From Clostridia bacterium (lineage in GTDB: Bacteria > Bacillota > Clostridia > TANB77 > CAG-508), in assembly GCA_022793875.1 (NCBI GenBank), contig JAAWDR010000004.1, forward strand, positions 4,287-68,286: 64,000 bases of DNA, given 5' to 3'. Within the stretch, counting starts at the first letter, position 1. Each line of letters opens with the position of its first letter. The notes under the pieces are model-generated. The model searched no databases, was not told the DNA's origin, and was given only the letters and a program-made list of their open reading frames with translations. Below are positions 4,053 through 57,050 of the stretch, piece by piece. The translations under genes were made by a program, and so were the position numbers.

Positions 4053-4595
4053 CTTCTTACTAAATTTATTTAATACAATTCCAACTTTATGAACAATTGC
4101 TGTAGAGTTTTTATTTGCAACTTCTTTACCAAGAGCTTTTCCTCCAACAGTTATTGCTGAAACTAAAGCACTTAATATGTATTGTATATCAAATGGTAAT
4201 TTAATTTCACTACCTATTTTTATTGCAATTAAAGCTCCTATAGCACCACTTAATACTCCGCATATATCTCCTATAACATCAGCACAAATATTTGCAACTC
4301 TTGGGGCATTTTTTATTAGTTTTATTGAATCTTTTGAACCTTGAACTTTTTTTGTTGCCTTAGCATGAAATTCATCTATGTTTGCTACAGTAACTGCTAC
4401 CCCTATTATATCAAATACTATTCCTATACCTATTACTAATACTAATATTAATATTGCTGGTATTAAGCTCAAATTTGACACTCCATTAGTTGATATATAA
4501 GAAAAAACTACTGATAATACAAATGTCATAATAAATACTTGTATAAACCATTTTCTATTCGAGTGTTCTTTTGTAATTTCTTGTTTCTTATCCAC
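4050..4595 (-). CDS. oapA: Small polytopic membrane protein, OLE-associated protein A (OapA)-like
   Basis: 181 aa (~20 kDa), about 4 TM segments, Asp motifs FDIIG and ADVIGD, GTG start after aaagaggt. It sits directly downstream of a ~620-nt ORF-free structured region on the same strand. Confidence 0.55.
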   Translation of the reverse strand: MDKKQEITKEHSNRKWFIQVFIMTFVLSVVFSYISTNGVSNLSLIPAILILVLVIGIGIVFDIIGVAVTVANIDEFHAKATKKVQGSKDSIKLIKNAPRVANICADVIGDICGVLSGAIGALIAIKIGSEIKLPFDIQYILSALVSAITVGGKALGKEVANKNSTAIVHKVGIVLNKFSKK

Positions 4596-4617
4596 TTTTA
4601 ACCTCTTTCAATAAATT

Positions 4618-5238
4618 AAGGTAAGCACTTTAAGGCTTACCTTCTACTTTTAACTTAATTTTGTTTTGATGGTAAAAATCTAAGTAAATTTTACGGTTTA
4701 GGTCTAGTTGAATTTCTCTATCTCCCGCTTAACATTACTGTTATAGCTGTTTCCATTTAAGGGAAATAACTAATTTATTAATTAGTCACCAGATCGCCAC
4801 TCAAATCCGTACCTTAATCCTTAGATTTTCAAGCTTTATGATTAAAGCAAACATTCTAGAAGTTTTCCTTGACATACTTTTACAAATCTACTAGTCTATT
4901 TTGCAAGTGAAATTTCATACTTTAAAAATAACATCTATTTGGCCGAAATATCAATTATTTTCGATAAAAATAATCCCAATACACTCACTCGAGACAGGCT
5001 ACACTATGTATTTTGTGTCTTGGCACTCAACATAGGTTTAACTTAAACTCTATTTAAGCCTCCGCGAAACTAGGGAATCATATATATGCCATTACATACT
5101 ACCCTAACTCCTTTACTCCCTGAATACACACAAAACTGGCATTTCGCGCACAAACAAGAAACTTCAACGATGTGCCCTTTAGTGGATTTTTAGCCCCACC
5201 CTCGTAAATTTAAGTACGACTAGAATAATGCACCATCA
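4618..5238 (-). ncRNA. ole: Large structured non-coding RNA, probable OLE (ornate large extremophilic) RNA
   Basis: No ORF in any frame. GC-rich islands in an AT-rich genome with many complementary segments. Bounded by a strong promoter (5245-5273) and a hairpin (4618-4643). The ~620 nt length and the OapA-like gene immediately 3' both fit OLE. Confidence 0.5.
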
Positions 5239-5244
5239 ATATAT

Positions 5245-5273
5245 ATTATACCAAATTTTGAAAAAAATACCAA
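5245..5273 (-). promoter_or_regulatory. Sigma-A type promoter driving the large ncRNA
   Basis: The minus strand reads TTGGTA, a 17-nt spacer, then TGgTATAAT (extended -10). Confidence 0.6.
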
Positions 5274-5365
5274 TTTCATTTCTTTTTATTTTTTGTATTC
5301 TTTATCGAATTGTCGTAGAATATATTTACTTTTCTCTTCTAAGCTTTCTAAATCTCTTTTTTTCT

Positions 5366-5980
5366 TTATCTTTCTTCATCATAGATATTTTCTTTTGGTT
5401 GTATATAATCTATTATCTCATTTACACATTCTTGTAAGTCCATATTATAAAATTTCTTTTTAATTTGTGCTTTTTCTAAATTTTCTTCTGAAAAGTCTTT
5501 ACTATCAGCAATAAATCTTCTACACATTTCTGTATATTTAGGTTGTTTTTGTCTTTCTTCCCTTTCAATAGCTCTTCTTAATCTAATATTATCAGGAACT
5601 TCTATATATATTGGTACTATATCTACATCTCTATCATCTACAAAATTTTCTTTTATTTTCATATATGATTCTAAAGTCCCTAACATTAACATATCTTTAT
5701 TACTATTAAACTGTTCATCATTAATTGTTGCATATATCCATGGTCCATATTCAGTTTGATATGTTCTGTATTCTATTACACTTTGTTCTTTTTTTCCATC
5801 GATATATTCTTGCATCTGTTCTTTGCTTACAAAATTGTATGTTACTCCATCAACTTCTCCATCTCTAATAGGTCTTGTTGCATACATTACATATGTATTT
5901 ACATCCATTTTTTGCTTTAGTATATTATAAATAGTATCTTTTCCCGTTGAACTCTTTCCCATCATATATATTAATTTCAT
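5366..5980 (-). CDS. Guanylate kinase-like P-loop protein
   Basis: P-loop GKSSTGKDT and ATRPIRDGEVDGVTYNFVS (the GK TTR..R.GE.DG..Y.F motif). Confidence 0.7.
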   Translation of the reverse strand: MKLIYMMGKSSTGKDTIYNILKQKMDVNTYVMYATRPIRDGEVDGVTYNFVSKEQMQEYIDGKKEQSVIEYRTYQTEYGPWIYATINDEQFNSNKDMLMLGTLESYMKIKENFVDDRDVDIVPIYIEVPDNIRLRRAIEREERQKQPKYTEMCRRFIADSKDFSEENLEKAQIKKKFYNMDLQECVNEIIDYIQPKENIYDEER

Positions 5981-6127
5981 ATTTTAACCCCTTCCATTTG
6001 GATTATACTATCAAAATTCTTTTATTTCAACAATTTTACTAGATTTTTTTACTTTTTTATGATATAATAATTGTACTTTTATTTACAAAAAACACAACAA
6101 ATATCATAAATCTTAAGGAGGTAATGT

Positions 6128-7333
6128 ATGAAAAAATTTGAAAACTATGCAGCAGTGTCAACAAATCCTAAATGGGATAATATGACTAAAAGAGAAAATT
6201 ACCTTTATCAAAGAAGCAACGATATGAGAAGCCCTTTTCAGAGAGATTACACAAGAATAATACACAGTAATGGTTACAGAAGATTAAAACACAAAACGCA
6301 AGTATTTTTTTCACCTGAAAATGATCACATCTGTACAAGAATAGAACATGTTACTCATGTTGAATCTATAAGCTATACAATTGCAAAAAATTTGGGATTA
6401 AATACCGAATTAACAAAAGCGATTTCCGTAGCTCATGATATGGGCCATAGTGCATTTGGCCATACAGGTGAAAATATCTTATCACAAATCTCTAAAAGAG
6501 ATATTGGTATTCCATTCTGGCATGAACAAAATGGCTTAAATTTAGTTGATAATCTTGAATTATTAGAAGATAACAGTGGATTTATGCAAAATCTAAATTT
6601 AACATATGCTGTTAGAGATGGAATAATTTCACATTGTGGAGAAATTGATGAAAATTATTTAAAACCTAGAGCAGAATTCATTGATTTAAAGGATTATACT
6701 TCTCCTAACAAATATGCTCCATATACTTGGGAGGGATGTGTAGTAAAAATAGCTGACAAAATATCTTATATATGTCGTGATATTGAAGATGCTATTACTT
6801 TAGGAATTTTAGATGGTCATTTGGAAGAATTATATCATCTTTTAAATATTGATGTAGATGACGAGCCTATAAATAATACTGTTATAACCAATACTTTAAT
6901 TCATGATTTATGTGAAAATTCTTCTCCTGAAGTAGGATTACATTTTTCAGAAAAATCTTTAAATCTTATGAATGAAATTAAAAGATTTAACTACAAAAAT
7001 ATTTATGGATGTCCTAGAATTAAACCATCAAATAGATTTTTTAACATTGTTATTAATGAAATCTATGATTTATTAAAATCAACATATGATGGTTCAAACA
7101 CCTTAAATAATTTGAAATCCTTAATAAAGACTTATCCAAAACTGTGTACATCATTTATTAGTTTTATGCAGAATTATTACGATTTTAATAACAGAGATGA
7201 ACTAAAACTAAAAAACAAAGTTTTATTTTCAATTGATAATCCGACTGATTTTTATAAGTCCATTATTTACTTTATTTCTGGTATGACTGATAATTTTGCT
7301 ATTGAAATTTATAATGAAATTATTCACTTCTAA
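6128..7333 (+). CDS. dgt: dGTP triphosphohydrolase-like HD-domain protein
   Basis: FQRDYTRIIHS..YRRLKHKTQVF, RIEHVTHV and VAHDMGHSAFGH are typical of dGTPase-like HD phosphohydrolases. Confidence 0.85.
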   Translation: MKKFENYAAVSTNPKWDNMTKRENYLYQRSNDMRSPFQRDYTRIIHSNGYRRLKHKTQVFFSPENDHICTRIEHVTHVESISYTIAKNLGLNTELTKAISVAHDMGHSAFGHTGENILSQISKRDIGIPFWHEQNGLNLVDNLELLEDNSGFMQNLNLTYAVRDGIISHCGEIDENYLKPRAEFIDLKDYTSPNKYAPYTWEGCVVKIADKISYICRDIEDAITLGILDGHLEELYHLLNIDVDDEPINNTVITNTLIHDLCENSSPEVGLHFSEKSLNLMNEIKRFNYKNIYGCPRIKPSNRFFNIVINEIYDLLKSTYDGSNTLNNLKSLIKTYPKLCTSFISFMQNYYDFNNRDELKLKNKVLFSIDNPTDFYKSIIYFISGMTDNFAIEIYNEIIHF

Positions 7334-16948: not shown

Positions 16949-18032
16949 TTGAAATTAGAAGAATTAAATTTAACAGAAAAAATTGGACAAATGATAATGA
17001 TTGGACTAGACACAAACTATATAACAGAAAGAATTAAAACAATGATAACTAAATATAAGATTGGTGGAATAATCTTGTATAGAAAGAATTTTAATACATA
17101 TCAAGAAATGATTAAATTGATAAATGATTTAAAAAGTCTAAATAGAGAGAATAGACTTCCTTTATTTATTGCAATAGACCAAGAAGGTCGGGAGAGTAAA
17201 TAGAATGCCACCAGAAATAAAAAATTTACCACCCGCAAATAAATTAGCATCTCTTAATAATAAAGAGATTATCATTGATTCTGCAAAAATAACAGGAAAA
17301 CTATTAAAAGAGTCAGGTTTCAATTTAAATTTTGCTCCTGTATTAGATATTAAACGTTTTGATGACGGACATCCTATTGGTGATAGATGTTATGGAAAAA
17401 CAAAAGAAGAAGTTACAGAATATGCAATCCCTGTTATGAAAGAATTACAAAACCAAGGAATTGTTTCAGTAATTAAACACTTTCCTGGCCATGGTGCAAC
17501 CAAACAAGACTCTCATGCCTTGTTACCTGTAATAAACTCTAATATTAAAAATTTACAAAACGAAGATATGTATCCATTTGAACACGCAATTAATCAAGGA
17601 GCTGATGCAATACTTGTAAGTCATCTACTAATCCCAAAAATAACTGGCATTTATCCAGCATCACTATCAAGAAAATTTATTACTACATATTTGAGAAAAA
17701 AATATAAATTTAGAGGTCTTGTAATTACAGATGACTTAAAAATGAAAGCAATAAAACTCATATATGGTGCTGATTTAGCTGTCGAAAAAGCTTTTAAAGC
17801 TGGAAATGATATTATTGTTTTTAGATTTAACCATTCAGAAGAAACACGTATTCTTGATAAAATTTTATTTCTAGTAAAAAAAGGAAAAATTAAGGAATAT
17901 CAAATTAACAGAAGTGTTAAAAGAATAATTAGAATAAAAGAAAAATATAATATTTCTGATGAATCTGTTGAAGGAGTTTCAGATATAAATAATTTAAATA
18001 ATAGAATTGAAGAGATTAGAAGTCTGTTCTAA
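16949..18032 (+). pseudogene. nagZ: Beta-N-acetylhexosaminidase (GH3, NagZ-like) interrupted by a 1-nt frameshift
   Basis: ORFs 16949-17203 and 17205-18032 join if c17189 is removed, giving IAIDQEGGRVNRMPPEI. Motifs KHFPGHG and VITDDL are present. Confidence 0.8.
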
Positions 18033-18077
18033 AAAATCTATATTTCACTTATTTAAAAATCTACCAATAATCTAAGC

Positions 18078-18557
18078 TTATTGGCAGATTTTATTTTTAC
18101 TTTTCATTTTTCTTAAATCTTTAAAAAACTCCTTTAGTATATTCTCACATTCATCTTTAAGAATTCCTTTTTCAACTTCAACTTTATGATTAAAGGTATA
18201 ATCTTCTAACAAATTAAATACAGAACCAACCGCTCCTGTTTTTTCATCATTTGTTCCAATATACACTTTTTTAATTCTAGAATTAATTAATGCTCCTGCA
18301 CACATAGAACATGGTTCTAAAGTAACATACATTTCACAGTCAATCAATCTCCAAGAATTTAATTTTTTACTTGCTTTTTGAATTGCTAAAATTTCTGCAT
18401 GTTTTGTTGTATCAAATTTAGTTTCTTTTAAGTTGTGTGCTCTTGCTATAATTTTTCCATCTTTTACAATTACTGCTCCAACTGGTACTTCTAGTTTGTC
18501 ACATGCTTTTTTTGCTTCTTTTAGAGCTTCTTTCATAAATTTCTCTTTATACTCCAT
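18078..18557 (-). CDS. tadA: tRNA-specific adenosine deaminase
   Basis: HAEILAI and LEPCSMCAGAL zinc motifs. The start is MEYKEKFMKEAL with SD aaagga; the upstream ORF extension is not credible. Confidence 0.9.
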   Translation of the reverse strand: MEYKEKFMKEALKEAKKACDKLEVPVGAVIVKDGKIIARAHNLKETKFDTTKHAEILAIQKASKKLNSWRLIDCEMYVTLEPCSMCAGALINSRIKKVYIGTNDEKTGAVGSVFNLLEDYTFNHKVEVEKGILKDECENILKEFFKDLRKMKSKNKICQ

Positions 18558-18585
18558 ACTAATTTTTCCTTTAAATATCATTTTG

Positions 18586-19240
18586 TTAAAAAGTAATACC
18601 ATCAATACAATTCTCATAAACAAATTGTTTAATTTTAGAATTATCATTTGAATTATAAAATTCAGATAACAATGTAGTAAACTCTTGTAATTTATTATCT
18701 GGGACCTTTATAATTCCACATCCATTTTCAATCATAATCTTATTAGCACAAATAGTACTTGTTCTTTTATTTCCATCCCAAAACAATTGACTTCTCATTC
18801 CATATAACATATATTCAATAGCTCTTTCTGTAGAATTTTCTATTTGCAATATTTTATTTATATCTTCCTTTACTTTTTCTTCATTCGGAATATCTGGAAT
18901 ATACTCTGTACCAGTAATTTGTACATTACCGATTTCTTAATACTCCCCACGAAAGGCTCTCATTTCTAGCTACAAATTCATTAACTTTACAAATAAATTC
19001 TAAATTAAATATATCTTCTATATTATTTATAACATATTTCCAAGCATCTCTTAAATTTAGTATACACTGTATTTCATCTATTTTCAAATTAGGAACATTT
19101 ACACCTTCTAAAACAGTCTTAGTTTCAGGGAAAGTAACATTTAGTCCTTCCATTCTAGCATTTGCATATACATTGTCTACTAAATTTCTCTTAGCTAAAA
19201 AAATATTTTGTTCTAATGTTAAATTATATTTATTTTCCAT
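18586..19240 (-). pseudogene. Fic/Doc-family protein, split by a frameshift near 18925
   Basis: The N-terminal ORF ends ...WGVLRNR*. The next frame continues GNVQITGTEYIPDIP into ...QLFWDGNKRTST, a Doc-like GNKR motif lacking the conserved His. Confidence 0.6.
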
Positions 19241-19305
19241 ATTATCACCCTTTTTTAATTTAATACAATTATAACATATTATCTTTAAAATTACTATATT
19301 TAAAA

Positions 19306-19545
19306 TTTTTTAAGTTTCTATATTTTTATTTATATTTAAATTTAAAAGTTATAATATATAGTAAAATGTAGTAATGCGCAGTTTGGGAGGACACTTATTA
19401 ATATAGATTAGCTATATTAACTGTTCTTTTTTTGAAATATTAATAAACATTTTTATATGATTAGTCCAACCAATAAAGAACGGAATTTTACTATATATTA
19501 TAACTTTTATAAATTATTTTAAAAAATACTGAAACTTAAATTAAA
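19306..19545. repeat. Nested palindromic element family 1, long form (copy 1)
   Basis: Inner 24-bp IR AAAAGTTATAATATATAGTAAAAT (19344-19367 and 19485-19508) flanks a ~117-bp core. Outer IR is TAAGTTTC / GAAACTTA. Other copies lie at 44575-44702 and 58445-58670. Confidence 0.8.
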
Positions 19546-19690
19546 ATTTTTTTAAATTTTTCAGATACTGCATCTGCAAATTATCTTCTACAAACTGTTC
19601 TTGATCTGATTTACATCTTTTACTTTGAATTAATAATACCCATAAAAATAATTCCTGAAAAAATAATATTCCTGAAATAAATAAAAACAT
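19541..19690 (-). CDS. Possible 49-aa small hydrophobic protein
   Basis: ATG preceded by aaaagaggtg. Sequence MFLFISGILFFQELFLWVLLIQSKRCKSDQEQFVEDNLQMQYLKNLKKF. It is below the ORF-track cutoff and its 3' end abuts palindrome copy 1. Confidence 0.3.
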   Translation of the reverse strand: MFLFISGILFFQELFLWVLLIQSKRCKSDQEQFVEDNLQMQYLKNLKKF

Positions 19691-19940
19691 AAGCACCTCT
19701 TTTCTAGTATTTATATTGTATATAATAAAGTATCATATCTCTATTATATTAACCAAAAATAGAAATGTTATAATACTTTACATAATATTATAACACTTCT
19801 ATTTATATAATACTCAAAAAAATTGTCGAAAATATTTATTATTTAAATATTTTTAATATGTGTCCCTTTTTTTAATGTTTACAAAATTCATTTCATGAAT
19901 TATGCATAAGGTATCTGTAACTCGCTTTGCTCTAACAGCT

Positions 19941-19983
19941 ATCTCAAAAATGTCCCAAAGAGAAACGTCCCCAATGGGACATT
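19941..19983 (-). terminator. Hairpin immediately after the rpoC stop codon
   Basis: The minus strand reads AATGTCCCA, a 17-nt loop, TGGGACATT, then TTTGAG. It contains the dispersed GTCCC motif. Confidence 0.5.
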
Positions 19984-19984
19984 C

Positions 19985-22900
19985 CTATTGGACATCTTCT
20001 TCTTTTTTCTCTGTATTAATATGAGTTTCTTGATATCTCTTCATACCAGTACCAGCTGGAATTAACTTACCAATAATAACATTTTCTTTTAATCCAACTA
20101 AATCATCTGTCTTACCTTTAATTGCAGCTTCTGTAAGAACTCTAGTTGTTTCTTGGAATGATGCTGCTGATAAGAAACTTTCTGTTGCAAGAGATGCTTT
20201 AGTAATACCAAGTAATACTCTATGTCCTGTTGCTGGGCGTTTACCATTTGCAACTGCTTCATTATTTTTATCTTCAAAGTCATACATATCAACTAATGAA
20301 CCTGGGAACATATCAGTATCTCCATTATCTTCAACTCTAACTTTTTTAAGCATTTGTCTACCAATAACTTCAACGTGTTTATCATTTATATCAACACCTT
20401 GATTTCTATATACTTTTTGAACTTCAGATGTTAAGTATTCGTAAACTCCTTCTGGTCCTTTTAAAGTAAGTATTTCTGATGGATTTATAGAACCTTCAAT
20501 TAATGGATCTCCAACTTCTACTATGTCTCCATCTTTTACTTTCATCTTTGAACCAAATGGTATTGTATATGTTCTTGAATCATCATTAGAAGTAACAACA
20601 ACTTCTTTTTTCTTCTTAGTTTCTTTTATTTTAACTTTACCTGCAATTTCTGTAATAATTGCAACTCCCTTAGGTTTTCTAGCTTCGAATAATTCCTCGA
20701 CTCTAGGAAGACCTTGTGTAATATCTGCTACACCTGCAACACCACCAGAGTGGATAGTTCTCATTGTAAGCTGTGTACCAGGCTCACCTATTGATTGTGC
20801 AGCTATGATACCTACAGATTCTCCTATTGATACAAGACTTCTTCTTGCTAATCCCATACCATAACATTTTTGACATACACCGTGTTTTGATCTACATGCT
20901 AGAACTGAACGTACTTCTAGTTTTTCAATTCCTGCTGCAACTATTTTATCAGCTATTTCATCTGTTATCATAGTTTCTGTGTCAACAATTAGTTCTTTAG
21001 TATTTGGATCATATACATCATTTACAGCAAATCTACCAACCATTCTTTCTTGCATTTTTTCAATTACTTGATTTCCGTCTTTAATATCATAAATTACTAG
21101 CCCTTCATGTGTTCCACAATCATATTCTCTAACTATAATATCTTGTGATACATCAACTAATCTTCTTGTTAAATATCCTGAGTCAGCTGTTCTTAAAGCT
21201 GTATCTGAAAGTCCCTTACGAGCACCATGAGCAGAAATGAAATATTCTAGAGCATCTAGCCCTTCTGCAAATGATGATTTAATAGGAATTTCTACGGCTT
21301 TACCTGTTGTACTAGCCATAAGTCCACGGATACCTGCAATTTGTCTTAATTGGTTCATATTACCTCTGGCTCCAGATTTAACCATCATATATATTGGGTT
21401 TAAGTCTTCAAAGTTTTCTTCCATCGCTGTACTTATTTTCTTTGTAGCATCTTCCCAAACTTTAATTACTGAATTATATCTTTCTTCATTAGTAATTAAA
21501 CCTCTTGCATATTGTTTTCTGATTGTTTCAATTTTTTTATCAGCTTCTTCTAGTAATCCTTTTTTAGCTTCAGGCACTTTAACATCACTCATTGAGAATG
21601 TAATACCTGCAAGTGTTGAATATTTAAATCCTAAAGATTTTATATAGTCAATTACTTCTGCTGATTCTACAACACCATGTACTTTTATTTCTCTGTCTAT
21701 TATTTGTCCCATTGTTTTCTTAACTACTGGGAAGTTTATTTCATATTGGAATGGATCTTCTTCTCTATTTACAAAACCTAAATCTTGAGGAATTCCCTGG
21801 TTAAATATAATTCTACCAACACTTGTTTCAATCTTTTTAGATTTCATTTCTCCATTAATTTCTTTTGTTATTCTAACAAATATCTTAGCATGCATACTTA
21901 TATCATTATTTTCATATGCCATTATTGCTTCTTCTGGGTCTTTGAAATATTTTCCTTCTCCCAATTCTCCCTCTAATGTCATTGTTAAGTAATAACTTCC
22001 TAAAATCATGTCTAGTCTAGGTACTGCAACTGGTTTACCATCTTGTGGTTTTAATAAGTTATTTGTTGCAAGCATTAAGTATCTAGCTTCTGCTTGTGCT
22101 TCTGGTGATAATGGTAAGTGAACTGCCATTTGGTCACCATCGAAGTCAGCATTAAATGCTTCACAAACTAATGGGTGAAGTTTAATTGCTCTACCTTCTA
22201 CTAATACTGGTTCAAATGCTTGTATACCTAATCTGTGTAGAGTAGGTGCACGGTTTAACATTACAGGATGATCTTTTATAACATACTCTAATATTTCCCA
22301 TACTTCTGGTCTTAATCTTTCTACCATTCTTTTAGCATTTTTTATATTTTGAGCAATTCCTCTTCCAACTAATTCTTTCATTACAAATGGTTTGAATAAT
22401 TCAACAGCCATTTCTTTTGGAAGACCACATTGATAAATATTTAGTTCTGGTCCAACAACTATAACAGAACGTCCAGAATAGTCAACTCTCTTACCTAATA
22501 AGTTTTGACGGAATCTACCTTGTTTTCCTTTTAACATATCAGATAAAGATTTTAAAGCTCTATTTCCAGCACCTGTTACAGGCTTTCCTCTTCTACTATT
22601 ATCAATTAATGCATCTACAGATTCTTGTAACATTCTTTTTTCATTTCTTACAATTATTTCTGGAGCACCTAATTCTAATAATCTTTTTAATCTGTTATTT
22701 CTATTAATAACTCTTCTATATAAGTCATTTAAATCAGAAGTTGCAAATCTACCACCATCTAATTGAACCATTGGTCTTAACTCTGGCGGAATTACTGGTA
22801 CAACTGACATTATCATCCATTCTGGTTTTGTATCTGATAATCTAAATGAATCAATTGTATCAAGTCTTTTAACAATTTTACTTTTCTTTTGCTCACTTGC

Positions 22901-23494
22901 ATTTTCTAATTCTTTTCTTAAATCGTTAGACAATTTATCTAAATCAACTTTTTCTAATAATTCTTTTAAAGCTTCTGCACCCATTCTAGCCTTAAATGTA
23001 CCTTTACCACATCTTTCTTCTGCTTCATGATATTCTTTTTCAGTTAAAACTTGGCATTCACTTAAATCTGATGTTCCTTTATCTGTAACTATATAAGAAG
23101 CAAAATATACTACCTTTTCTAAATTACGTGGTGAAACATCTAGTATCAAAGCAATTCTACTAGGAATTCCTTTAAAATACCAAATATGTGCCACTGGTGC
23201 AGCAAGTTCAATATGTCCCATTCTTTCTCTTCTAACTTTTGATTTAGTTACTTCAACACCACATCTATCACATACTATTCCTTTATATCTAACCCTTTTA
23301 TATTTACCACAATGACATTCCCAGTCTTTTGTTGGTCCAAAAATTCTTTCACAGAATAGACCATCTCTTTCTGGTTTTAATGTTCTATAATTTATAGTCT
23401 CAGGTTTTTTAACTTCACCTTTTGACCATTCTCTTATTTTCTCATCTGATGCAATTCCTATTTTTATTTTATTAAAAATATCTAATTCGTCCAC
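19985..23494 (-). CDS. rpoC: DNA-directed RNA polymerase subunit beta'
   Basis: 1169 aa with NADFDGD, a zinc-binding CxxC cluster and [14 protein letters not shown] start after aggggga. Confidence 0.97.
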
Positions 23495-23514
23495 TTTTTT
23501 TCCCCCTAATTTTA

Positions 23515-23547
23515 TTTGTCCAAAAGAGAGGTTTCTTTTTGGACAAA
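23515..23547 (-). promoter_or_regulatory. Strong hairpin 20 nt upstream of the rpoC start (attenuator/terminator-like)
   Basis: TTTGTCCAAAAG ... CTTTTTGGACAAA, a ~12-bp stem with a weak U-tract. Confidence 0.45.
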
Positions 23548-23698
23548 AATGTCCAATTAAGACACATCTTAATCCAAAAAGAATTTTCCCTATTTGATTA
23601 TTTTAAAGGTTTTAATTTCAAAACAGTAACAAAGCTCTATCCACTGCTGGTGCAATTCTATATTGTCGACTTCTCACTTTTTAAAATTTATTTAATTG

Positions 23699-23734
23699 CT
23701 GAACCTGTTAAAGCTTTGCTTGTTACAGGTTCAG
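23699..23734 (-). terminator. Hairpin after the hepT stop
   Basis: CTGAACCTGT(T)AA ... TTACAGGTTCAG, an ~11-bp stem about 30 nt downstream of the hepT stop. Confidence 0.4.
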
Positions 23735-23764
23735 TACACAAAATGTGTTAGCTTTTTGTGTTTC

Positions 23765-24115
23765 TTATATTTCTACATTAAGTTGTTTTTCTATAAATGT
23801 TTTTACAACAGGTATATCCTCGACTGCTGTATAAAATATTTTTGTAGAATCCATTTTACCATAACCATGTGCAAAACGGTTTCTCATTCCTCTTATGGCA
23901 TTCCAGTTCATATCATTTTTAGTTTCTTCTAAATATTCATCTGTTAAATGATTTGCTAATTCTCCAATTTGAAATATTTTCATAGAAAGTGAATCTTTAT
24001 AATCATTATCTAATTTAAACTTTTCAATATCATTTCCAAAACGATTTATAGTAGCATTAATCTCATTACAATACTTTAACATATGTTTTAAAACTGTTAT
24101 ATCTCTATTCTCCAT
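23765..24115 (-). CDS. hepT: HepT-like (DUF86) RNase toxin of a type VII TA system
   Basis: 116 aa with the Rx4HxY motif RNRFAHGY. Overlaps the upstream nucleotidyltransferase gene by 11 nt. Confidence 0.8.
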   Translation of the reverse strand: MENRDITVLKHMLKYCNEINATINRFGNDIEKFKLDNDYKDSLSMKIFQIGELANHLTDEYLEETKNDMNWNAIRGMRNRFAHGYGKMDSTKIFYTAVEDIPVVKTFIEKQLNVEI

Positions 24116-24446
24116 AAATCATCACTCTCTCTTTTTTTATATTTTCATAAAATTCTTCTTCAAAATCTTCCATTTGTTCATTTTCAAAACATTCTTCTTC
24201 AATTAAATCAACATCCTTTTGTAATGTTTCTTTCAAATTTTCAAGAATTATTCCTATAACAAATAAACTTCTTATATTTTTTGCTACTATTATAATATCA
24301 ATATCGCTATTTTCATTATAATCTCCTCTAGCATAAGAACCAAAAATATATGCTTTATCTACACCATATTTTCTAAATATTGGCTCTGTAAGTTTTTTTA
24401 TTTGAGCAATAGCCTCTTCTTTATTTAATTTTTCCATAAGCTTCAC
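24105..24446 (-). CDS. mntA: MNT-type nucleotidyltransferase antitoxin
   Basis: 113 aa with GSYARGD and SDIDI (GSx10-20DxD pattern of minimal nucleotidyltransferases). Confidence 0.8.
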   Translation of the reverse strand: MKLMEKLNKEEAIAQIKKLTEPIFRKYGVDKAYIFGSYARGDYNENSDIDIIIVAKNIRSLFVIGIILENLKETLQKDVDLIEEECFENEQMEDFEEEFYENIKKERVMIYGE

Positions 24447-24592
24447 TCCTTTTTTGATTTAATACTATCTGAACGAATCAAAAGCGGTGTATTGGTAGGA
24501 AAGCTAGAAAAAATCTTTGAAATAATACGTTTGTATATTGAAAAGATTTTTTCGACGCTTGACAACGCAAGACGCCGCTTTTCATTTGTTCA

Positions 24593-27500
24593 TTATATTA
24601 AGTCGTCATCATTGGCAAGATTATCCTCAGCCAAATCACTATCGAAAATAGCATCATCATCTTCATCATCTAAATCTTCAAATAAATCATCACTATCTTC
24701 GTCAACCTCTTCTTCATCTAATAAAACATCATCTTCAACATCCTCGCTATAGCCATCAGCCAAATCATCAGCAGCTACAACCTCATCTTCTGCTAAATAC
24801 TTTTTATCTTTTTCAGGATCATATTCAATTCCATCTTCAATATTTTCCTTTAATTCAAGTTCTTGATTATCTTCTGAATATAAACGAATATCTAATCCTA
24901 AAGATTGTAATTCTTTTACAAGAACTTTAAAGCTTTCTGGAACACCTGGCTCAGGAATATTTTCACCTTTAACTATTGATTCATAAGTTTTTACTCTACC
25001 TACAACATCATCAGATTTAACTGTTAACATTTCTTGTAATGTATAAGCAGCACCATAAGCTTCCAATGCCCAAACTTCCATTTCTCCGAAACGTTGTCCA
25101 CCAAATTGAGCTTTACCTCCAAGTGGTTGTTGTGTAACTAATGAGTATGGTCCAGTTGAACGAGCATGTATTTTATCATCAACTAAATGGTGAAGTTTCA
25201 ACATGTACATTACACCAACTGTAATTGGCTTATCAAATGGGTCACCTGTTCTACCATCATATAGAATTGATTTACCATCTTCACTCATTCCTGCTTGTTT
25301 TAATAATTCTTCAACATCTTCTTGTGTTGCACCATCAAATACTGGTGTTGATACATGCCATCCTAAAGCTTTAGCTGCTCCTCCTAAGTGAACTTCAAGT
25401 ATTTGTCCTAAATTCATACGAGATGGAAGTCCAAGTGGGTTAAGTAATATATCTATTGGTGTACCATCTGGTAAGAATGGCATATCTTCTTCTGGTAATA
25501 CTCTTGAGATAACACCTTTGTTACCATGACGTCCAGCCATTTTATCTCCAACTGATATTTTTCTTTTTGTTGCTATATAACATCTAATTATTTGATTTAC
25601 TCCTGGTCCTAATTCATCTGAATTATCTCTTGTAAAGATTTTAACATCAACTATTGTTCCAGCTTCTCCATGAGGTACTTTTAATGATGTATCTCTTACT
25701 TCCCTAGCTTTTTCACCAAAGATTGCTCTTAATAATCTTTCTTCAGCTGTTAATTCTGTTTCTCCTTTTGGAGTAACTTTACCAACTAAGATATCTCCTG
25801 GTCTAACTTCTGCACCTATTCTTATAATACCATTTTCATCTAAGTCTTTTAATACATCATCACCAACATTTGGTATATCTCTTGTTATTTCTTCTGGCCC
25901 TAATTTTGTATCACGACATTCACAATCATATTCTTCAATATGTATTGATGTAAATACATCTTCTTTTACTAATCTTTCATTTAATAGTATAGCATCCTCA
26001 TAGTTGTATCCTTCCCATGTTGAGAAAGCAACTAATGCATTTTTACCTAATGACATTTCACCATCTTTTGTTGATGGACCATCAGCTATGCTATCTCCTT
26101 TTTTAACTTTTTCTCCAACTTTAACAATTGGTCTTTGGTTTATACATGTACCACCATTTGTTCTTTTGAATTTACGTAATTTATGTACTACTGTTTTTCC
26201 ATTTTTATATTTAACTGTAATAGCATTTCCTGTAACTTTTTCAATAACACCATCATCTTCTGCTAGTATTAATATTCCAGAATCTTTTGCTGCTCTATAT
26301 TCAATACCTGTTGCAACTATTGGTCTTTCTGTTATCATTAAAGGAACCGCTTGTCTTTGCATGTTTGCACCCATTAAAGATCTTTTTGCATCATCATGCT
26401 CTAAGAATGGTATCATGGCTGCTGCTATAGATACTAATTGTTTTGGTGAAACATCTATATATTGAACTCTGTCTTTTTCAACTTCTATGATTTCATTTTT
26501 ATATCTAACTCTAATTCTGTCATTTACAAATTCACCATTTTCGTTCATTGGTTCAGATGCTTGTGCTATTATGTAATTATCTTCTACATCTGCACTCATA
26601 TATTCAACATTATCTGTTGCTCTATGTGTTTCTGGATCTATTTTTCTGTATGGTGTTTCTATGAATCCATATTCATTTATATTTGCAAATGATGAAAGTG
26701 CTGAAATTAATCCAATGTTCGGTCCTTCTGGTGATTCTATTGGACATAGTCTACCATAGTGTGTATAGTGAACGTCTCTAACTTCAAATCCAGCTCTTTC
26801 TCTTGTAAGACCTCCAGGTCCTAATGCTGAAATTCTTCTTTTATGTGTTAATTCTGAAAGTGGGTTAGTTTGATCCATAAATTGTGACAATTGTGAACTT
26901 CCAAAGAATTCTCTTATTGATGATGTTATTGGTTTTGTATTAATTAATGTTTGTGGTGTTACAACATCTAAGTCTTGAATTGTCATTCTTTCTCTTACAA
27001 CTCTTTCAAGTCTTGTTAGACCAATTCTAAATTGATTTTGTAATAATTCCCCAACACATCTAATTCTACGATTAGCTAAGTGGTCTATATCATCTACATT
27101 TCCTAATCCATGAGCTAAATTTAATAAATAGTTTATAGATGATAACATATCTTCTGTTGTAATAGTTTTTGGTATTAATTCATCAATTCTTTGTCCAATT
27201 ACTTTTACTAAATCTTTCTCATCAGTATTTTCAATTATATTTTGTAATACTTGATAATTTACTTCTTCTTTTATATTTAAAGAACTTAAATCAACTGTTG
27301 GTAATACTTCATGAATGTTTACAGTTCCATTTCCTATAACTCTAACTGTTCTTTCTCCAACTAATACATCAACAATATTTATTCCTGCATTTTTAATATT
27401 TTTAGCAACTTCTGCAGATATAACTTCTCCTGCTTGTACAAATACTTCTCCTGTTTCTTTATCCATTATATCTTTTGCTGCAATTTTTCCTGTTATTCTT

Positions 27501-28351
27501 GTTGATAAACTTAATTTTTGATCAAATTTATATCTACCAACTTTTGCTAAATCATATCTTCTATTGTCATAGAATAATCCATCAAATAAATTTCTTGCTG
27601 CGTCTACTGTTGGAAGTTCTCCTGGTCTTAATTTCTTATATATTTCAATTAAAGCTTCTTCTTGAGTTTTAATTGTATCTTTTGAAATTGTTGCATTTAA
27701 TAATTCTTCATCTCCAAATAAATCTCTTATTTGGTCATCTGTAACTATTCCTATTGCTCTTAATAATGTTGTTACTGGTACTTTTCTTGTTCTATCAACA
27801 CGAACATAAAAAATATCATTTCCATCTGTTTCATATTCTAGCCATGCTCCTCTTAATGGCATAACTGTTGATGTATATGTTCTCTTTCCTGTTTTTGTGT
27901 CAAATTCCTCTGCATAATAACATCCTGGTGAACGTACTAATTGGCTTACTACAACTCTTTCTGCACCATTTATTATAAATGTTCCACTATCTGTCATTAA
28001 TGGAAAATCACCTAAGTAAATTTCTTGCTCTTTTATTTCTCCTGTTTCTCTGTTTATTAAACGAACTTTAACATGTAATCTTGTTGAATATGTTGCATCT
28101 CTTTCTTTTGCTTCTTCAATTGAATATTTTGTCTTGTCCTCCATATAGTAATCAAAAAATTCAAGAACTAGATTTCCAGAATAGTCTTCTATTGGTGATA
28201 TATCTTTTAATACTTCTCCTAATCCTTCATTTACAAACCATTCATATGAATCTTTTTGTACTTTGATTAAGTTTGGCATTTCAATAAAATCTCCAACTTT
28301 TGCGAAATCTTTTCTTGAAGCTTTTTCATATTGTACATCTTTAATTTTCAA
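24593..28351 (-). CDS. rpoB: DNA-directed RNA polymerase subunit beta
   Basis: About 1250 aa with the conserved blocks of beta ([25 protein letters not shown]). The probable start is TTG at 28351 after agggag; the ORF opens at 28360. Confidence 0.97.
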
Positions 28352-28754
28352 AAAAATCACTCCCTATAAAAATTTGAAGCAGATTCCTTAAGTTCTTAAT
28401 TAATACTTTCGCATTTAATTTAGAATTTAAGTATAAATTTGTTTGATTTTAAGAAAAGTCCTTCTTACAATACAGTTACTCTTATATCTAAATTATCTCG
28501 TCTGCTTTTCGAGCTAGTTTATCTATATTTTACTGTATTTAATTCCTCTCTTCTTAAATTTTGAACTTAGTATTTTGAATTTTATTTCTTTTGAAAAAAA
28601 TTATAATTAATCACTCTATATGATACCACATTTTACCAGTAAAAGTCAAGAGTTTCACAATATTTTTGATAAAAATTGTAATATAATTATTGCTTTTGCA
28701 AATAGATTATAGTAAAATAATCAAGAAATTATTTATAGAAAGGACAAAAGAATT

Positions 28755-29315
28755 ATGATGAGCTTACCAATTGTTGTAAAATATTTATTAATAGCACTAG
28801 TTAGTATGGTTCCAATAGTTGAATTAAGAGGTGCAATTCCAATCGCAGAAGGGTTAGGTTTAGATATATTTATATATTATCCAGTAGCCATTATAGGAAA
28901 TATGCTACCAGTCCCATTTATATATTTATTTGCTAGAAAATTTCTTGAATGGGGAAAGGATAAAAAATTAATCGGAAAATTTTTCACATGGTGTTTAGAA
29001 AAAGGTGAAAAAGGTGGCGAAAAATTAAAAGAAACTGCTGGGAATAAAGGTTTATTTTTTGCTTTACTTTTATTTGTTGGAGTTCCACTACCTGGAACAG
29101 GTGCATGGACAGGAACTTTAGCTGCTAGCTTCTTAAAAATAGATTTTAAAACAAGTATTTTAGCTGTAACTTTAGGTGTTTTATTAGCTGGTATTATAAT
29201 GTCTTTAGGTAGCAAATTTGTTGCGGTTTTGGGATGGACTGGTTTACTGGCAATTATTGCTGTAATAGCAATTATAATTATTGCTTCAATTATGATTAGA
29301 AAAAGAAAAAATTAA
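28755..29315 (+). CDS. Small multidrug-export-like membrane protein (COG2426-type)
   Basis: 186 aa and polytopic, with VELRGAIPIA and the PLPGTGAWTG motif. Confidence 0.65.
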   Translation: MMSLPIVVKYLLIALVSMVPIVELRGAIPIAEGLGLDIFIYYPVAIIGNMLPVPFIYLFARKFLEWGKDKKLIGKFFTWCLEKGEKGGEKLKETAGNKGLFFALLLFVGVPLPGTGAWTGTLAASFLKIDFKTSILAVTLGVLLAGIIMSLGSKFVAVLGWTGLLAIIAVIAIIIIASIMIRKRKN

Positions 29316-29342
29316 AGTACACATTTTGTTGTGTACTTTTTT
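29316..29342 (+). terminator. Rho-independent terminator
   Basis: AGTACACA tttt gt TGTGTACT followed by TTTTTT. Confidence 0.7.
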
Positions 29343-29421
29343 AATAATACTAACTATTGTCCTATTATTAATTTAATATTTTTCTTTACAAATTTTATTT
29401 TAAATTTACCTTTCTTTTGTT

Positions 29422-29943
29422 TCAGTTATCATATAAATAATCCAATGCTTGTTTAACATTTGTTATATCTGTACCATCTTTTGATTTCCATGCACTATCT
29501 GATGGTATAAATTCGACCATTTCTGCTGTAATAATTTCTGGTACTGTAACATTTTCTATTCCTTTATATTCTGTTGTTCCATCTGTTATATAAAATATAA
29601 ATCCATCATTTGTTATTAATTTTATTTTATTTATATTTTTATCTTCTATACTTTCACTAACCCAGTCTCTTTGCTTAGAATCATTAAAGGCTATATTTAG
29701 CCTTTCTAATGTAATTCCACCATTGTAAGATAATCTTGTTTCTACTTTTATTAGCTCTATTTTTTCCTTATATTGTGCAATTAAAGTTTCTTCTTTTGCT
29801 AATTCTGCTTTTTTTAACAATCCACTTCCTGCTAAGGCTGATATTGATATTCCTGCTAAAATTAATAAAATTATGATTGTGATTACGAGTGCTACTAATG
29901 TAATACCATTATTATTACAAAATTTATCTTTTTTCTCTTGCAT
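29422..29943 (-). CDS. Small protein with the same prepilin-like leader as family L
   Basis: 173 aa. MQEKKDKFCNNNG/ITLVALVITIIILLILAGISISALAGSGLLKKAELAKEE. Confidence 0.75.
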   Translation of the reverse strand: MQEKKDKFCNNNGITLVALVITIIILLILAGISISALAGSGLLKKAELAKEETLIAQYKEKIELIKVETRLSYNGGITLERLNIAFNDSKQRDWVSESIEDKNINKIKLITNDGFIFYITDGTTEYKGIENVTVPEIITAEMVEFIPSDSAWKSKDGTDITNVKQALDYLYDN

Positions 29944-30000
29944 TTTAAAATTTTCTCCTTTTCTTTTGATTTTTTACAAAATTATATTATCATATCTGCA
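29944..30000 (-). promoter_or_regulatory. Conserved promoter/5' leader shared with the 43758 gene and the S genes
   Basis: The minus strand reads ..GATATGATAATATAATTTTGTAAAAAATCAAAAGAAAAGGAGAA..ATG and aligns with 43759-43830. The AAATCAAAAGA..GGAGAA leader is also present before S1-S4. Confidence 0.45.
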
Positions 30001-30075
30001 ATTCCTATTATATATTTTTAATTTTCCAAGCACAATAAAGTGCATATTTTTTATTATGCACTTTTACATAATATT

Positions 30076-31215
30076 TTATTCACTCTCATCCTTAATTCTA
30101 TTTTTATTATCAATATAATCACACAAAATAGTCTTAATTACAACAGCAATTGGAACAGCTAAAAACATTCCAAGTATTCCAAAATATGCCCCTCCAATAG
30201 TAATTGAAAATAGTACAAGTAATGGACTTGTTTCTAATGAATTGCCTAGTATTTTAGGATTAATAATATTAGCATCAATTTGTTGTAAAACTATTACAAC
30301 TATTGACATTGCAAGAGCTTGTCCAAATCCTCCTGTAATAAATGTTATAAGTATTGATAATCCAACAGCTATAATTGCTCCTATATATGGTATCATATTG
30401 AATAGTCCTATTAAAAATCCTAATAATGGTGCATATTTTACTTTTAATAATAGCATTCCAATAGTAGTTAATATTCCTACAATAACTGCATCTAACAATT
30501 GACTAGATATAAATGTAAAAAATACATTATTTGCATTAGTAAAATATCTATCTACTGTTTGATAAGTTTCTTTCTTAAATACAGCTCTCGCAAATTTTCT
30601 TAAAAATTCCATTATAGAAGTTCTTTGTAATAATATATATACAGAAACTACAATTGAAACAAATACATCAAAAATTCCTGAAAATATATCTATAATATTT
30701 TTAACATATTCTAAAATTTTTTCACTATTAATACTTAATAATTGATTTATATCAATATTTCTTATTTCCGACATTTTAGCCTTTATCATATCACTCTTAA
30801 AAATTGAATCTTCTGGTAATTCATCATATTTATTAACTATTGTATTATAATAATTTGGCACATTACTAATTAATTCTACTACACTGTCTTTTAATATTGG
30901 AAAAATACAGTTTATTATTATTACTATTACTAAAATAGCAATTAAATATGTAGTTATAACTGCTAATCCTCTTGATTTTTTTGTTATTATTTTGAATCTT
31001 GATTTTTTATAAATATTTTCAATTTTTCTACATGGTATAAGTAAAATATATGATATTAATAAACCAACAAAAAATGGGCTTAATATTCTAAATAGTGTTC
31101 CAAACCATGCTTGTATACTAGAAAAATTGTCTAACATTTTATAAACAAATACTACTATTAGTGCAATTACTAACCATGACATCCTTTTTTTCCAACCTTG
31201 TTTAATTTCTTCCAT
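30076..31215 (-). CDS. AI-2E family (PerM-like) transporter
   Basis: 379 aa and polytopic, with the typical ...IPYIGA... and LAVPIA segments. Confidence 0.8.
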   Translation of the reverse strand: MEEIKQGWKKRMSWLVIALIVVFVYKMLDNFSSIQAWFGTLFRILSPFFVGLLISYILLIPCRKIENIYKKSRFKIITKKSRGLAVITTYLIAILVIVIIINCIFPILKDSVVELISNVPNYYNTIVNKYDELPEDSIFKSDMIKAKMSEIRNIDINQLLSINSEKILEYVKNIIDIFSGIFDVFVSIVVSVYILLQRTSIMEFLRKFARAVFKKETYQTVDRYFTNANNVFFTFISSQLLDAVIVGILTTIGMLLLKVKYAPLLGFLIGLFNMIPYIGAIIAVGLSILITFITGGFGQALAMSIVVIVLQQIDANIINPKILGNSLETSPLLVLFSITIGGAYFGILGMFLAVPIAVVIKTILCDYIDNKNRIKDESE

Positions 31216-51819: not shown

Positions 51820-51839
51820 ATTCTACCTCCTTTCCTACA

Positions 51840-56714: not shown

Positions 56715-57050
56715 AATATTACCTCCCAAAATATAAAATGCTATAATTTTTAATACATTTTTCGACATTTTTACATAATATCTCTAAATAAAATTATACA
56801 CCAAAAATAGTGATTTTTCAACCATTTTTAATAAAATATTACTTATATTTTTACAATATATATTATAGTTACATTCATTTATAAAGTAAAGCCCTTCTAA
56901 TCCACAATATTTAAACAATTTGTGCACTATTTACGGAATCCTTAATATTACAAAATATTAAATTTTCTTTACTTTTTTATCAAATTTTGTAATTTTTTAT
57001 TCTTATTTCAACCTACTTAGCCTATTTCCCTAAGTTTTTTTATGTAATAT

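Follow-up and report, generated by a model that had tools for sequence, protein, structure and literature searches.

The genes rpoB and rpoC, which encode the beta and beta′ subunits of RNA polymerase, are essential and normally contiguous. In a 64,000-nucleotide stretch of DNA from a Clostridia bacterium with an AT-rich genome (GenBank assembly GCA_022793875.1, contig JAAWDR010000004.1; GC content 27.5%), hereafter called the window, the two genes are separated by exactly 1098 nt (positions 23495-24592) that hold two co-oriented open reading frames (ORFs). What do these ORFs encode, how long have they resided between the two genes, and is rpoC transcribed together with rpoB across them? Judged by motifs, profile matches and fold, the pair is a genuine two-gene toxin-antitoxin module of type VII (HepT/MntA). 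The module adds a new member to a known family, and we found no precedent for its genomic context: the literature searched, the coverage of which was incomplete, contained no report of any gene cassette, toxin-antitoxin or otherwise, at the rpoB-rpoC junction. We consider it probable that this type VII module was inserted in an ancestor, has descended mainly vertically, is likely co-transcribed with its flanking genes and plays the usual role of a toxin-antitoxin system.

On the minus strand the order is rpoB, a 155-nt spacer, mntA, hepT, a 270-nt spacer and rpoC. A preliminary description of the locus, drawn from its sequence, had put the separation at about 1.1 kb and had noted an 11-nt overlap between the two small ORFs, and both measurements hold (the overlap covers 24105-24115). 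The rpoB product matches Pfam Rpb2 domains 1-7 (E values down to 4e-141) and its tail is complete when compared with relatives, and the rpoC product matches Rpb1 domains 1-5. The mntA gene is taken to begin at the ATG at 24437, which lies 8 nt after an AAGGAG Shine-Dalgarno sequence and is the start chosen by gene callers on public contigs; the ORF listing instead extends to a GTG at 24446.

Type VII antitoxins are defined as nucleotidyltransferases with a GSx10DxD motif, and the toxins as HEPN RNases with an R-phi-xxxH motif followed by xY, the tyrosine of which receives at least two AMPs (PMC13000451). The sequence GSYARGDYNENSDID in the mntA product corresponds to GSx10DxD and is kept in all 16 cassette loci compared, the cassette being the mntA-hepT pair. 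This protein matches Pfam NTP_transf_2 with 53.1 bits (cut-off 21; E = 4.3e-14) and Polbeta with E = 2.3e-13; all Pfam domain calls on the small ORFs were judged against curated cut-offs and lie well above them. Among PDB sequences MntA matches 2rff_A (E = 3e-07) and Shewanella MntA (5yep_A, E = 2.3e-05), and it also matches six PADLOC PDC-S09 models (best E = 1e-17).

The hepT product aligns with profile positions 4-119 of the 120 in PF01934 (56.1 bits, cut-off 23.5; E = 3.7e-15). Its RNRFAHGY sequence conforms to R-phi-xxxHxY, and the full motif is present in 12 of the 16 cassette loci, the remaining four carrying H83R. Among 36 HepT homologues R78 and Y85 are invariant, and H83 is found in at least 90%. 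Searching PDB with the single HepT sequence gave no match, and HepT alone has no PADLOC match. The profile of the 36 homologues, however, recovers Shewanella HepT (6m6u_B/5yep_B, E = 1.9e-05) with the catalytic motif in register. Moreover, an AlphaFold2 model built on the homologue alignment (pLDDT 90.6, pTM 0.84) was compared with PDB using Foldseek, and ranks 1-19 are all type VII HEPN toxins from Aphanizomenon or Shewanella (chains from 7ae6, 7ae8, 7ae2, 7ae9, 7bxo, 6m6u, 6m6w and 5yep; probability 0.92-1.0, TMq 0.56-0.69). The corresponding E values are only about 0.1-0.7, which is usual for a protein that is small and helical. The antitoxin gene comes first in every cassette locus, and the two genes overlap by 11 nt in the window and by 8 nt in each of the relatives. 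The HepT/MNT pair proposed in the preliminary description is thus borne out by Pfam matches, motifs, PDB profile matches and the HepT fold, and the hidden Markov model search that it had suggested as a check places both ORFs above the HepT-like and NTP_transf_2 thresholds.

The reference type VII system is HepT/MntA from Shewanella oneidensis (SO_3166/SO_3165; PDB 5YEP, 6M6U, 6M6W, 7BXO). It shares with the window pair an overlapping antitoxin-first operon, a GSx10DxD MntA, an R-phi-xxxHxY HepT with its acceptor tyrosine, and the same fold, and the HepT motifs align as RGMRNRFAHGY in the window and VGLRNIAVHDY in Shewanella. The two pairs differ in sequence, with 13-19% identity in structural alignments, in size (139 and 133 amino acids compared with 110 and 116 in the window) and in setting, since that of the window pair is an rpoB-rpoC spacer and is conserved across a clade. 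The best Foldseek matches are to HEPN/MNT of Aphanizomenon flos-aquae (PDB 7AE2, 7AE6, 7AE8, 7AE9; probability 0.99-1.0, TMq 0.62-0.65), which belongs to the same mechanism class and carries a di- or oligo-AMPylated tyrosine beside the RNase motif (PDB entry titles; PMC13000451). Unlike the window pair, it is a stand-alone module with a toxin of about 140-150 amino acids, and identity is 11-14%. Minimal nucleotidyltransferases of the MJ0435/TTHA type (PDB 2RFF, 1WOT), which pair with DUF86/HEPN proteins in archaea and thermophiles, resemble the window MntA in size (about 100-110 amino acids) and include its best sequence match, 2rff_A, but these are functionally uncharacterised structural-genomics targets without a link to RNA polymerase genes. 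Likewise, the PDC-S09 likeness is confined to MntA, as HepT is without a match and PDC-S09 is itself only a candidate defence system.

Could the arrangement be an artefact of assembly or binning, in which a chimeric contig joins rpoB, the toxin-antitoxin pair and rpoC? The window appears to match metagenome-derived sequence, as the identical proteins are present in metagenome assemblies and a metagenome-assembled genome (MAG), and the nearest cassette-free relative (L001; loci outside the window carry labels of this form) is a 1.6-kb MAG contig. However, the exact HepT and MntA sequences occur in 121 and 126 blocks, respectively, of a public assembly collection. All 20 contigs inspected per query (from ENA, NCBI, JGI and Logan, and including a mouse-gut metagenome), which represent different samples and assemblers, read rpoB-mntA-hepT-rpoC with identical junctions. 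The same gene order also recurs in diverged lineages. An artefact is thereby refuted, and we give it practically no chance.

The distribution of HepT homologues delimits the arrangement further. There are 57 additional 90%-identity clusters at 72-92% identity to the window HepT, and each of those for which the context was looked up lies between rpoB and rpoC (P0009 and P0004 at 86%, P0019 and P0030 at 83%, P0054 at 78% and P0057 at 72%), as do loci L118 and L119. This placement spans at least six other lineages (HepT identity 72-86%), and the genes farther out from rpoB and rpoC vary among their genomes. By contrast, the clusters with 64% identity or less (P0061, P0064, P0065) sit elsewhere. 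Similarly, in a scan of metagenome contigs only the two loci at 72% identity or more are flanked by rpoB or rpoC, and 78 loci at 61% or less have no rpoB or rpoC flank within the flanks available. Near the rpoB-rpoC junction the pair is absent from all 80 GTDB species representatives that match best. One distant MntA-HepT pair (L115-L117, 56% HepT identity) adjoins a large serine recombinase, and the element appears to split a peroxiredoxin gene, with AhpC-TSA on one side and 1-cysPrx_C on the other; relatives of the module therefore ride on mobile DNA.

These data bear on the reading implied by the preliminary description, namely that a mobile, addictive toxin-antitoxin cassette recently lodged in the rpoBC operon of this one genome, where it disturbs rpoC or forces compensation. 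Such an event would fit the absence of the pair from the 80 GTDB representatives, the nearest included, the mobility of distant homologues and the species-specific hairpins that directly follow hepT (see below). It does not fit the occupation of the same site in at least six further lineages, or the synonymous sites of the cassette, which are near saturation with a ratio of nonsynonymous to synonymous substitution (dN/dS) of about 0.1. For the latter, the proportion of synonymous differences (pS) is 0.4-0.7 and dN is 0.08-0.24; GC content at third codon positions (GC3) near 0.1 makes absolute dS rough, although the contrast between pS and dN is firm. Between the window and L097, nucleotide identity is about 82% in the cassette and the same in the rpoB and rpoC flanks. 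In addition, the GC3 values of mntA (0.10) and hepT (0.14) are host-like, and in the window the cassette is flanked neither by terminal repeats nor by a transposase or integrase gene. The clade-wide distribution largely refutes a recent insertion, which we regard as very improbable. What stands of the earlier mobility claim is that the pair is an insertion relative to ancestral spacers of about 125-230 nt. The synteny comparison found the same toxin-antitoxin genes in relatives, and not unrelated genes in all of them, with further small genes sometimes added beside the pair.

The four closest cassette-free relatives have rpoB-rpoC spacers of about 125 nt (L001) and 136-230 nt (L002-L004), and in L002-L004 the spacer holds only the stem-loop of the rpoC leader described below. 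In a neighbour-joining tree of RpoB (470 amino acids) and RpoC (300 amino acids), the window, L097, L100, L106, L107 and L109 form one clade, to which the cassette-free L002-L004 are sister. With the 300-residue RpoC fragment alone, the cassette-free L001 groups with the window, although this placement is tentative. L198-L200, which lack MntA and HepT, were assigned by identity to the L106 sub-lineage. In the simplest scenario the cassette was gained once, after L002-L004 had split off, and then descended vertically, with at least two losses or replacements.

Both genes show signs of constraint. HepT has dN/dS values of 0.00-0.20 (0.06-0.20 in lineage pairs with dS of about 1) and MntA of 0.04-0.28 (0.08-0.28 in such pairs), compared with 0.04-0.16 for the first 300 codons of rpoC. 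Across cassette loci, HepT is consistently better conserved than MntA, which is unexpected under simple addiction because addiction protects the antitoxin and not the toxin. L106 and L107 depart from vertical descent: at locus positions 5653-6345 their cassettes share 95-100% nucleotide identity while the flanks share 86-94%, and dS is 0.05 for HepT and 0.58 for rpoC. This indicates that cassettes are occasionally exchanged between lineages, and the L106/L107 pattern suggests a recent exchange by recombination through the conserved flanks.

Taken together, our preferred explanation is that the pair would have entered the rpoB-rpoC intergenic region in the ancestor of a small clade of gut Clostridia with very AT-rich genomes. 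From then on its inheritance would have been mainly vertical, with purifying selection similar in strength to that acting on rpoC, with occasional exchange between lineages and with loss or replacement in some of them.

Where the cassette landed can be read from the rpoC leader. This leader (AATTAAATAA...) includes a stem-loop with an apical motif, GAATTG-YWC-N-AGCRGTGG, that is present upstream of rpoC in L001-L004, L097, L100, L102 and L106-L112. In 10 of 11 versions the fold is a long hairpin that bears the motif at its apex, although the stem sequences are unrelated between sub-lineages. Alignment of 13 leader sequences with MAFFT and analysis with RNAalifold gave no consensus structure, because the stems cannot be aligned between sub-lineages, and the structure thus comes from single-sequence folds. 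A search of 18500-30500 against Rfam, with E values up to 1, returned no match for the leader stem-loop or for the palindromes of the spacers. The presence of the motif in cassette-free relatives indicates that the cassette was inserted between the rpoB stop codon and this leader, which was left beside rpoC. The landing point would thus lie upstream of a pre-existing stem-loop that is itself a candidate cis-regulatory or processing element for rpoC.

Features of the rpoB-rpoC locus in the window. Coordinates are those of the window; genes and structures are listed in the direction of transcription.
Feature	Position	Strand	Description
rpoB	24593-28360	-	RNA polymerase beta, 1255 amino acids, acidic C-terminal tail; upstream flank of the insert
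Nested imperfect palindrome	24470-24592	-	123 nt, begins directly after the rpoB stop codon
mntA	24105-24437	-	Minimal nucleotidyltransferase antitoxin, 110 amino acids, nucleotidyltransferase motif GSYARGDYNENSDID
hepT	23765-24115	-	HEPN RNase toxin, 116 amino acids, motif R78-N-R-F-A-H83-G-Y85
Small hairpin	23736-23761	-	Directly after the hepT stop codon, CACAAAA...TTTTGTG, -5.3 kcal/mol
First hairpin of the preliminary description	23699-23734	-	CTGAACCTGT...ACAGGTTCAG, -16.4 kcal/mol
rpoC leader stem-loop	23614-23688	-	Conserved apical motif GAATTGCACCAGCAGTGG
Composite palindrome	23503-23609	-	Just upstream of the rpoC Shine-Dalgarno sequence, fold of -29.0 kcal/mol
rpoC	19985-23494	-	RNA polymerase beta′, 1169 amino acids, GTG start after GGGGGA; downstream flank

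The palindrome behind rpoB fills nearly all of the 155-nt spacer before mntA. Its outer arms are 25 nt long and 84% complementary and its inner arms are 18 nt long and 89% complementary. The predicted fold (-44.4 kcal/mol) has a z score of -6.2, with none of 200 shuffled sequences as stable. Palindromes of the same layout and with similar outer arms lie 3′ of rpoB in L106, L109, L110 and L198, and are absent from the cassette-free L001-L004. This element is a candidate for an RNA processing or attenuation hairpin, or for a boundary element of the inserted DNA.

The hepT-rpoC spacer folds into four domains. The small hairpin that directly follows hepT is species-specific, being absent after hepT in L097, L106, L107 and L100. 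The same holds for the hairpin at 23699-23734, which is absent from other cassette-bearing lineages and, for want of a U-tract on its 3′ side, is not a canonical intrinsic terminator. Both hairpins named in the preliminary description do exist, and the second (23515-23547, with perfect 11-nt arms) forms part of the composite palindrome, which is base-paired to part of the rpoC Shine-Dalgarno sequence in the fold of lowest predicted energy. The small hairpin, the leader stem-loop and the palindrome behind rpoB are structures additional to those two. In relatives the zone of the composite palindrome is variable and repeat-like and carries different nested inverted-repeat insertions, so that the hepT-rpoC spacer measures 108-381 nt. 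Short palindromic repeats of the GGGAC(G/A)T / CCAATAGG / TGGACA type are found at both ends of rpoC in the window (19940-19990 and 23503-23609), and in L107, L109, L110 and L198 such repeats form nested inverted-repeat (MITE-like) insertions upstream of rpoC that lengthen the leader up to 381 nt. Over the window as a whole the 11-mer TTTTGGACAAA, part of the second hairpin, shows no enrichment (6 matches versus 4.5 expected). A weak resemblance seen by eye between the sequence preceding the mntA Shine-Dalgarno site and the start of the rpoC leader (ATTAAAT...AAAAGTGA-AAG) was dropped, as repeat searches gave no support.

Is rpoC then still transcribed with rpoB? The ancestral arrangement is represented by L001, where the spacer is about 125 nt and consists mostly of the leader hairpin; it points almost certainly to ancestral co-transcription of rpoB and rpoC. 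The lack of room for a separate rpoC promoter in that arrangement favours operon transcription, as do the shared strand of all four genes and the short distance between rpoB and mntA in L097 (12 nt) and L202 (21 nt). A single rpoB-mntA-hepT-rpoC transcript is therefore likely on sequence grounds, and mntA-hepT would be transcribed within this unit. The preliminary description had offered two alternatives, read-through of the hairpins associated with the pair or a newly acquired rpoC promoter in 23548-23700. Most of this interval (23614-23688) is ancestral leader stem-loop, which cassette-free relatives also have and which was not acquired with the cassette.

The pair could instead be insulated, with the palindrome acting as a terminator or RNase III-type site, a promoter for mntA-hepT in 24438-24592, and rpoC expressed either from a promoter located after hepT or through read-through that starts at the cassette promoter. 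Very stable structures do bracket the cassette in the window species, the spacers before mntA and rpoC are 155 and 270 nt long, and a weak promoter-like match is present at 23684-23655. This match, however, has a -10 hexamer that relatives do not conserve, it overlaps the conserved leader stem-loop, and promoter-like matches in general occur at shuffle level. A terminator scan of 23300-24800 found none, and none of the hairpins there leads into a U-tract. Other lineages lack the hairpins behind hepT, and rpoB is followed by mntA within 12-21 nt in L097 and L202, and by an ORF after 3 nt in L112. On this evidence we consider insulation unlikely, and a shared transcript remains the preferred reading.

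The same spacer holds a variable set of genes in relatives. The distance from rpoB to mntA ranges from 12 nt (L097) and 21 nt (L202) to 1824 nt (L112), with zero to five extra co-oriented small ORFs, and the window represents the minimal version with only the palindrome, mntA and hepT. The site is a variable hotspot of accessory genes, with conserved core flanks and gene content that differs among close relatives, and is empty in L001. In L198-L200 (L198 positions 4435-5333), MntA and HepT are replaced by a 165-codon PemK/MazF-like ORF, which scores 21.6 bits against PF02452, just below the cut-off of 23.1, and a 110-codon winged-helix ORF. Truncated N-terminal remnants of the 165-codon gene lie upstream of MntA-HepT in L109, L110 and L111. 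Most extra ORFs belong to a loose family, one member of which was modelled as a winged helix. The extra ORFs of relatives gave no match in Pfam, PADLOC, PHROGs or PDB sequence profiles, Foldseek with the one modelled member returned generic winged helices, and the window encodes no member of this family. The notion that these ORFs are delta-like polymerase subunits was rejected, as the match to 8x6g_E (a chain of the Staphylococcus aureus RNA polymerase complex, left without subunit assignment) is no better than many other winged-helix matches.

Repeats in some relatives indicate how the contents of the spacer may change. In L100 a 127-nt direct repeat (91% identity; 5568-5690 and 6336-6460) of the rpoC leader up to the ATG brackets mntA-hepT, so that translation of mntA would start from a duplicate of the initiation region of rpoC. 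In L112 a repeat (92%) of the final 227 nt of rpoB follows a 147-codon ORF, and a partial one (79%) follows a 162-codon ORF (1146-1369, 1818-2041 and 2544-2656). A 20-mer, ACGTCGTTAATTCGAAAAAG, is confined to the spacer in L106, L107, L109, L110 and L198, where it sometimes precedes successive ORFs. Clear flanking repeats exist only in L100 and L112; around the window cassette, direct repeats or target-site duplications are limited to short, low-identity AT-rich matches that we judged to be chance. No recombinase was found among 16 window proteins scanned against Pfam, including the neighbours of rpoB and rpoC, or among the gene calls of the rpoB-rpoC loci. Repeats that copy the rpoB 3′ tail or the rpoC leader point to homologous recombination or duplication rather than to site-specific recombination.

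A tentative possibility is that the rpoB-rpoC spacer serves as an operon-embedded slot, in which toxin-antitoxin and other small accessory genes of this clade (HepT/MntA, a PemK-like gene, small winged-helix proteins) may be gained, swapped and lost by recombination through duplicated rpoB-tail and rpoC-leader sequences and, from one lineage to another, through the ultra-conserved flanks, and may be expressed from the promoter of the polymerase operon. Chromosomal integration hotspots and defence islets flanked by core genes are comparable, and integron cassette arrays offer an analogy. The spacer shares with them content that varies among close relatives between conserved core genes (here zero to five extra small ORFs, and PemK-like or HepT/MntA modules), co-oriented and close-packed inserted genes, and repeated boundary sequences. 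It differs in its placement within an essential operon, not between operons, and in that no integrase or attC-type site was identified. An integron-like cassette array proper was rejected, as the scanned window proteins and the gene calls of the loci gave no recombinase and the repeats are rpoB tail, rpoC leader or a lineage-specific 20-mer, not attC. If the idea is correct, the slot would be an integrase-free analogue of an integron platform, and HepT/MntA synthesis would be hard-wired to that of RNA polymerase, such that the module could report the transcription or ATP status of the host, for example during takeover by a phage.

By homology, HepT would be a HEPN RNase that cleaves RNA through its R-phi-xxxH site, and MntA would neutralise it by ATP-dependent oligo-AMPylation of Tyr85 in RNRFAHGY. 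The module would thus play the usual role of growth arrest or abortive infection when AMPylation fails, and its expression would be tied to RNA polymerase synthesis. The location would favour its persistence, as imprecise deletion would hit essential genes and hence be lethal, and would aid its spread, since homologous recombination can use the highly conserved flanks as its arms.

The pair may alternatively have been domesticated as a housekeeping RNA-processing or regulatory system for the rpoBC transcript or for the polymerase, for instance with MntA-controlled HepT cleaving the leader. A position fixed across the clade is compatible with this possibility, as are the constraint on HepT, which is like that on rpoC and greater than that on MntA, and the retention of both genes intact in several samples that carry H83R. 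Nevertheless, the RNase and AMPylation residues are conserved in every lineage except for H83R, the leader stem-loop is older than the cassette and exists without it, and the cassette behaves as accessory genes do in that it can be lost or swapped for a PemK-like gene. Domestication is therefore quite improbable in our estimate, and a toxin-antitoxin role is preferred.

Several observations weigh against parts of the explanation that we favour. A widespread HepT allele (RNRFARGY; protein P0004, L201-L204) replaces the catalytic histidine with arginine; seven contigs, which come from different samples, carry it at the rpoB-rpoC site, with mntA intact. Some of the P0004 contigs carry an extra ORF upstream and others do not. 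The cassette is dispensable, as L001, whose placement is tentative, and L198-L200 lack it and are nested in the clade that carries it. The HepT_toxin (NF047751) and MntA_antitoxin (NF047752) models of NCBIfam, although they are the best NCBIfam matches of the two proteins, score 23.5 and 43.4 bits, below the naming threshold of 60 set for each; this places the pair on a distant branch of the family, with shorter proteins, and it is not an equivalog of the Shewanella pair. Strong hairpins bracket the cassette (24470-24592 and 23699-23734) and could terminate, attenuate or process transcripts. Scans for sigma-70 promoters and intrinsic terminators gave counts at the level of shuffled sequence, which makes such scans unusable for defining transcription units in this AT-rich genome. 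Finally, we infer the toxicity, AMPylation activity and defence role of the window pair from its homologues.

The purpose of chromosomal toxin-antitoxin modules is the subject of a long-standing argument, and here such a module is kept with intact catalytic residues in about the most constrained site of a genome. The locus offers a natural test case in which simple addiction can be told apart from selection on the toxin, with the H83R allele and the cassette-free relatives for comparison, with expression that is probably tied to RNA polymerase synthesis, and with a spacer that accepts other cassettes. It also indicates that the rpoB-rpoC junction is not inviolable, and it points to a lineage-specific structured leader before rpoC.

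The surroundings of the locus show further features. The rpoB and rpoC genes lie outside their usual ribosomal-protein neighbourhood (28360-31215 and 17205-19985), and neither rplJ/rplL nor rpsL/rpsG was seen among their neighbours. On the upstream side of rpoB lie a divergent Sm_multidrug_ex gene, a 173-codon ORF that carries a weak prepilin-type N-methylation motif, and the gene for an AI-2E transporter; downstream of rpoC are a broken Fic gene, a MafB19/dCMP-type deaminase gene and a GH3 fragment. The Fic/DOC-family gene (18586-19240, minus strand), about 750 nt downstream of rpoC, has a frameshift after ...WGVLRNR. Its joined frames encode 218 amino acids that match Pfam Fic with 26.5 bits (threshold 24), and the core, LFWDGNKRTS, is degenerate and lacks the catalytic histidine. 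Public contigs of the same species also have this gene called as two ORFs.

Two adjacent giant ORFs (47500-56768 and 44729-47167, both on the minus strand; 1439 and 1642 amino acids) carry SdrD_B and DUF11 repeats, and their products are probably surface proteins. A gene for the sporulation phosphatase SpoIIE beside them points to a spore-forming lineage of Clostridia. The window also contains a full-length gene for OLE (Ornate Large Extremophilic) RNA at 4653-5252 on the minus strand (Rfam RF01071, model positions 1-616, 328.8 bits against a gathering score of 50), which is the sole Rfam family at threshold in the 64 kb.

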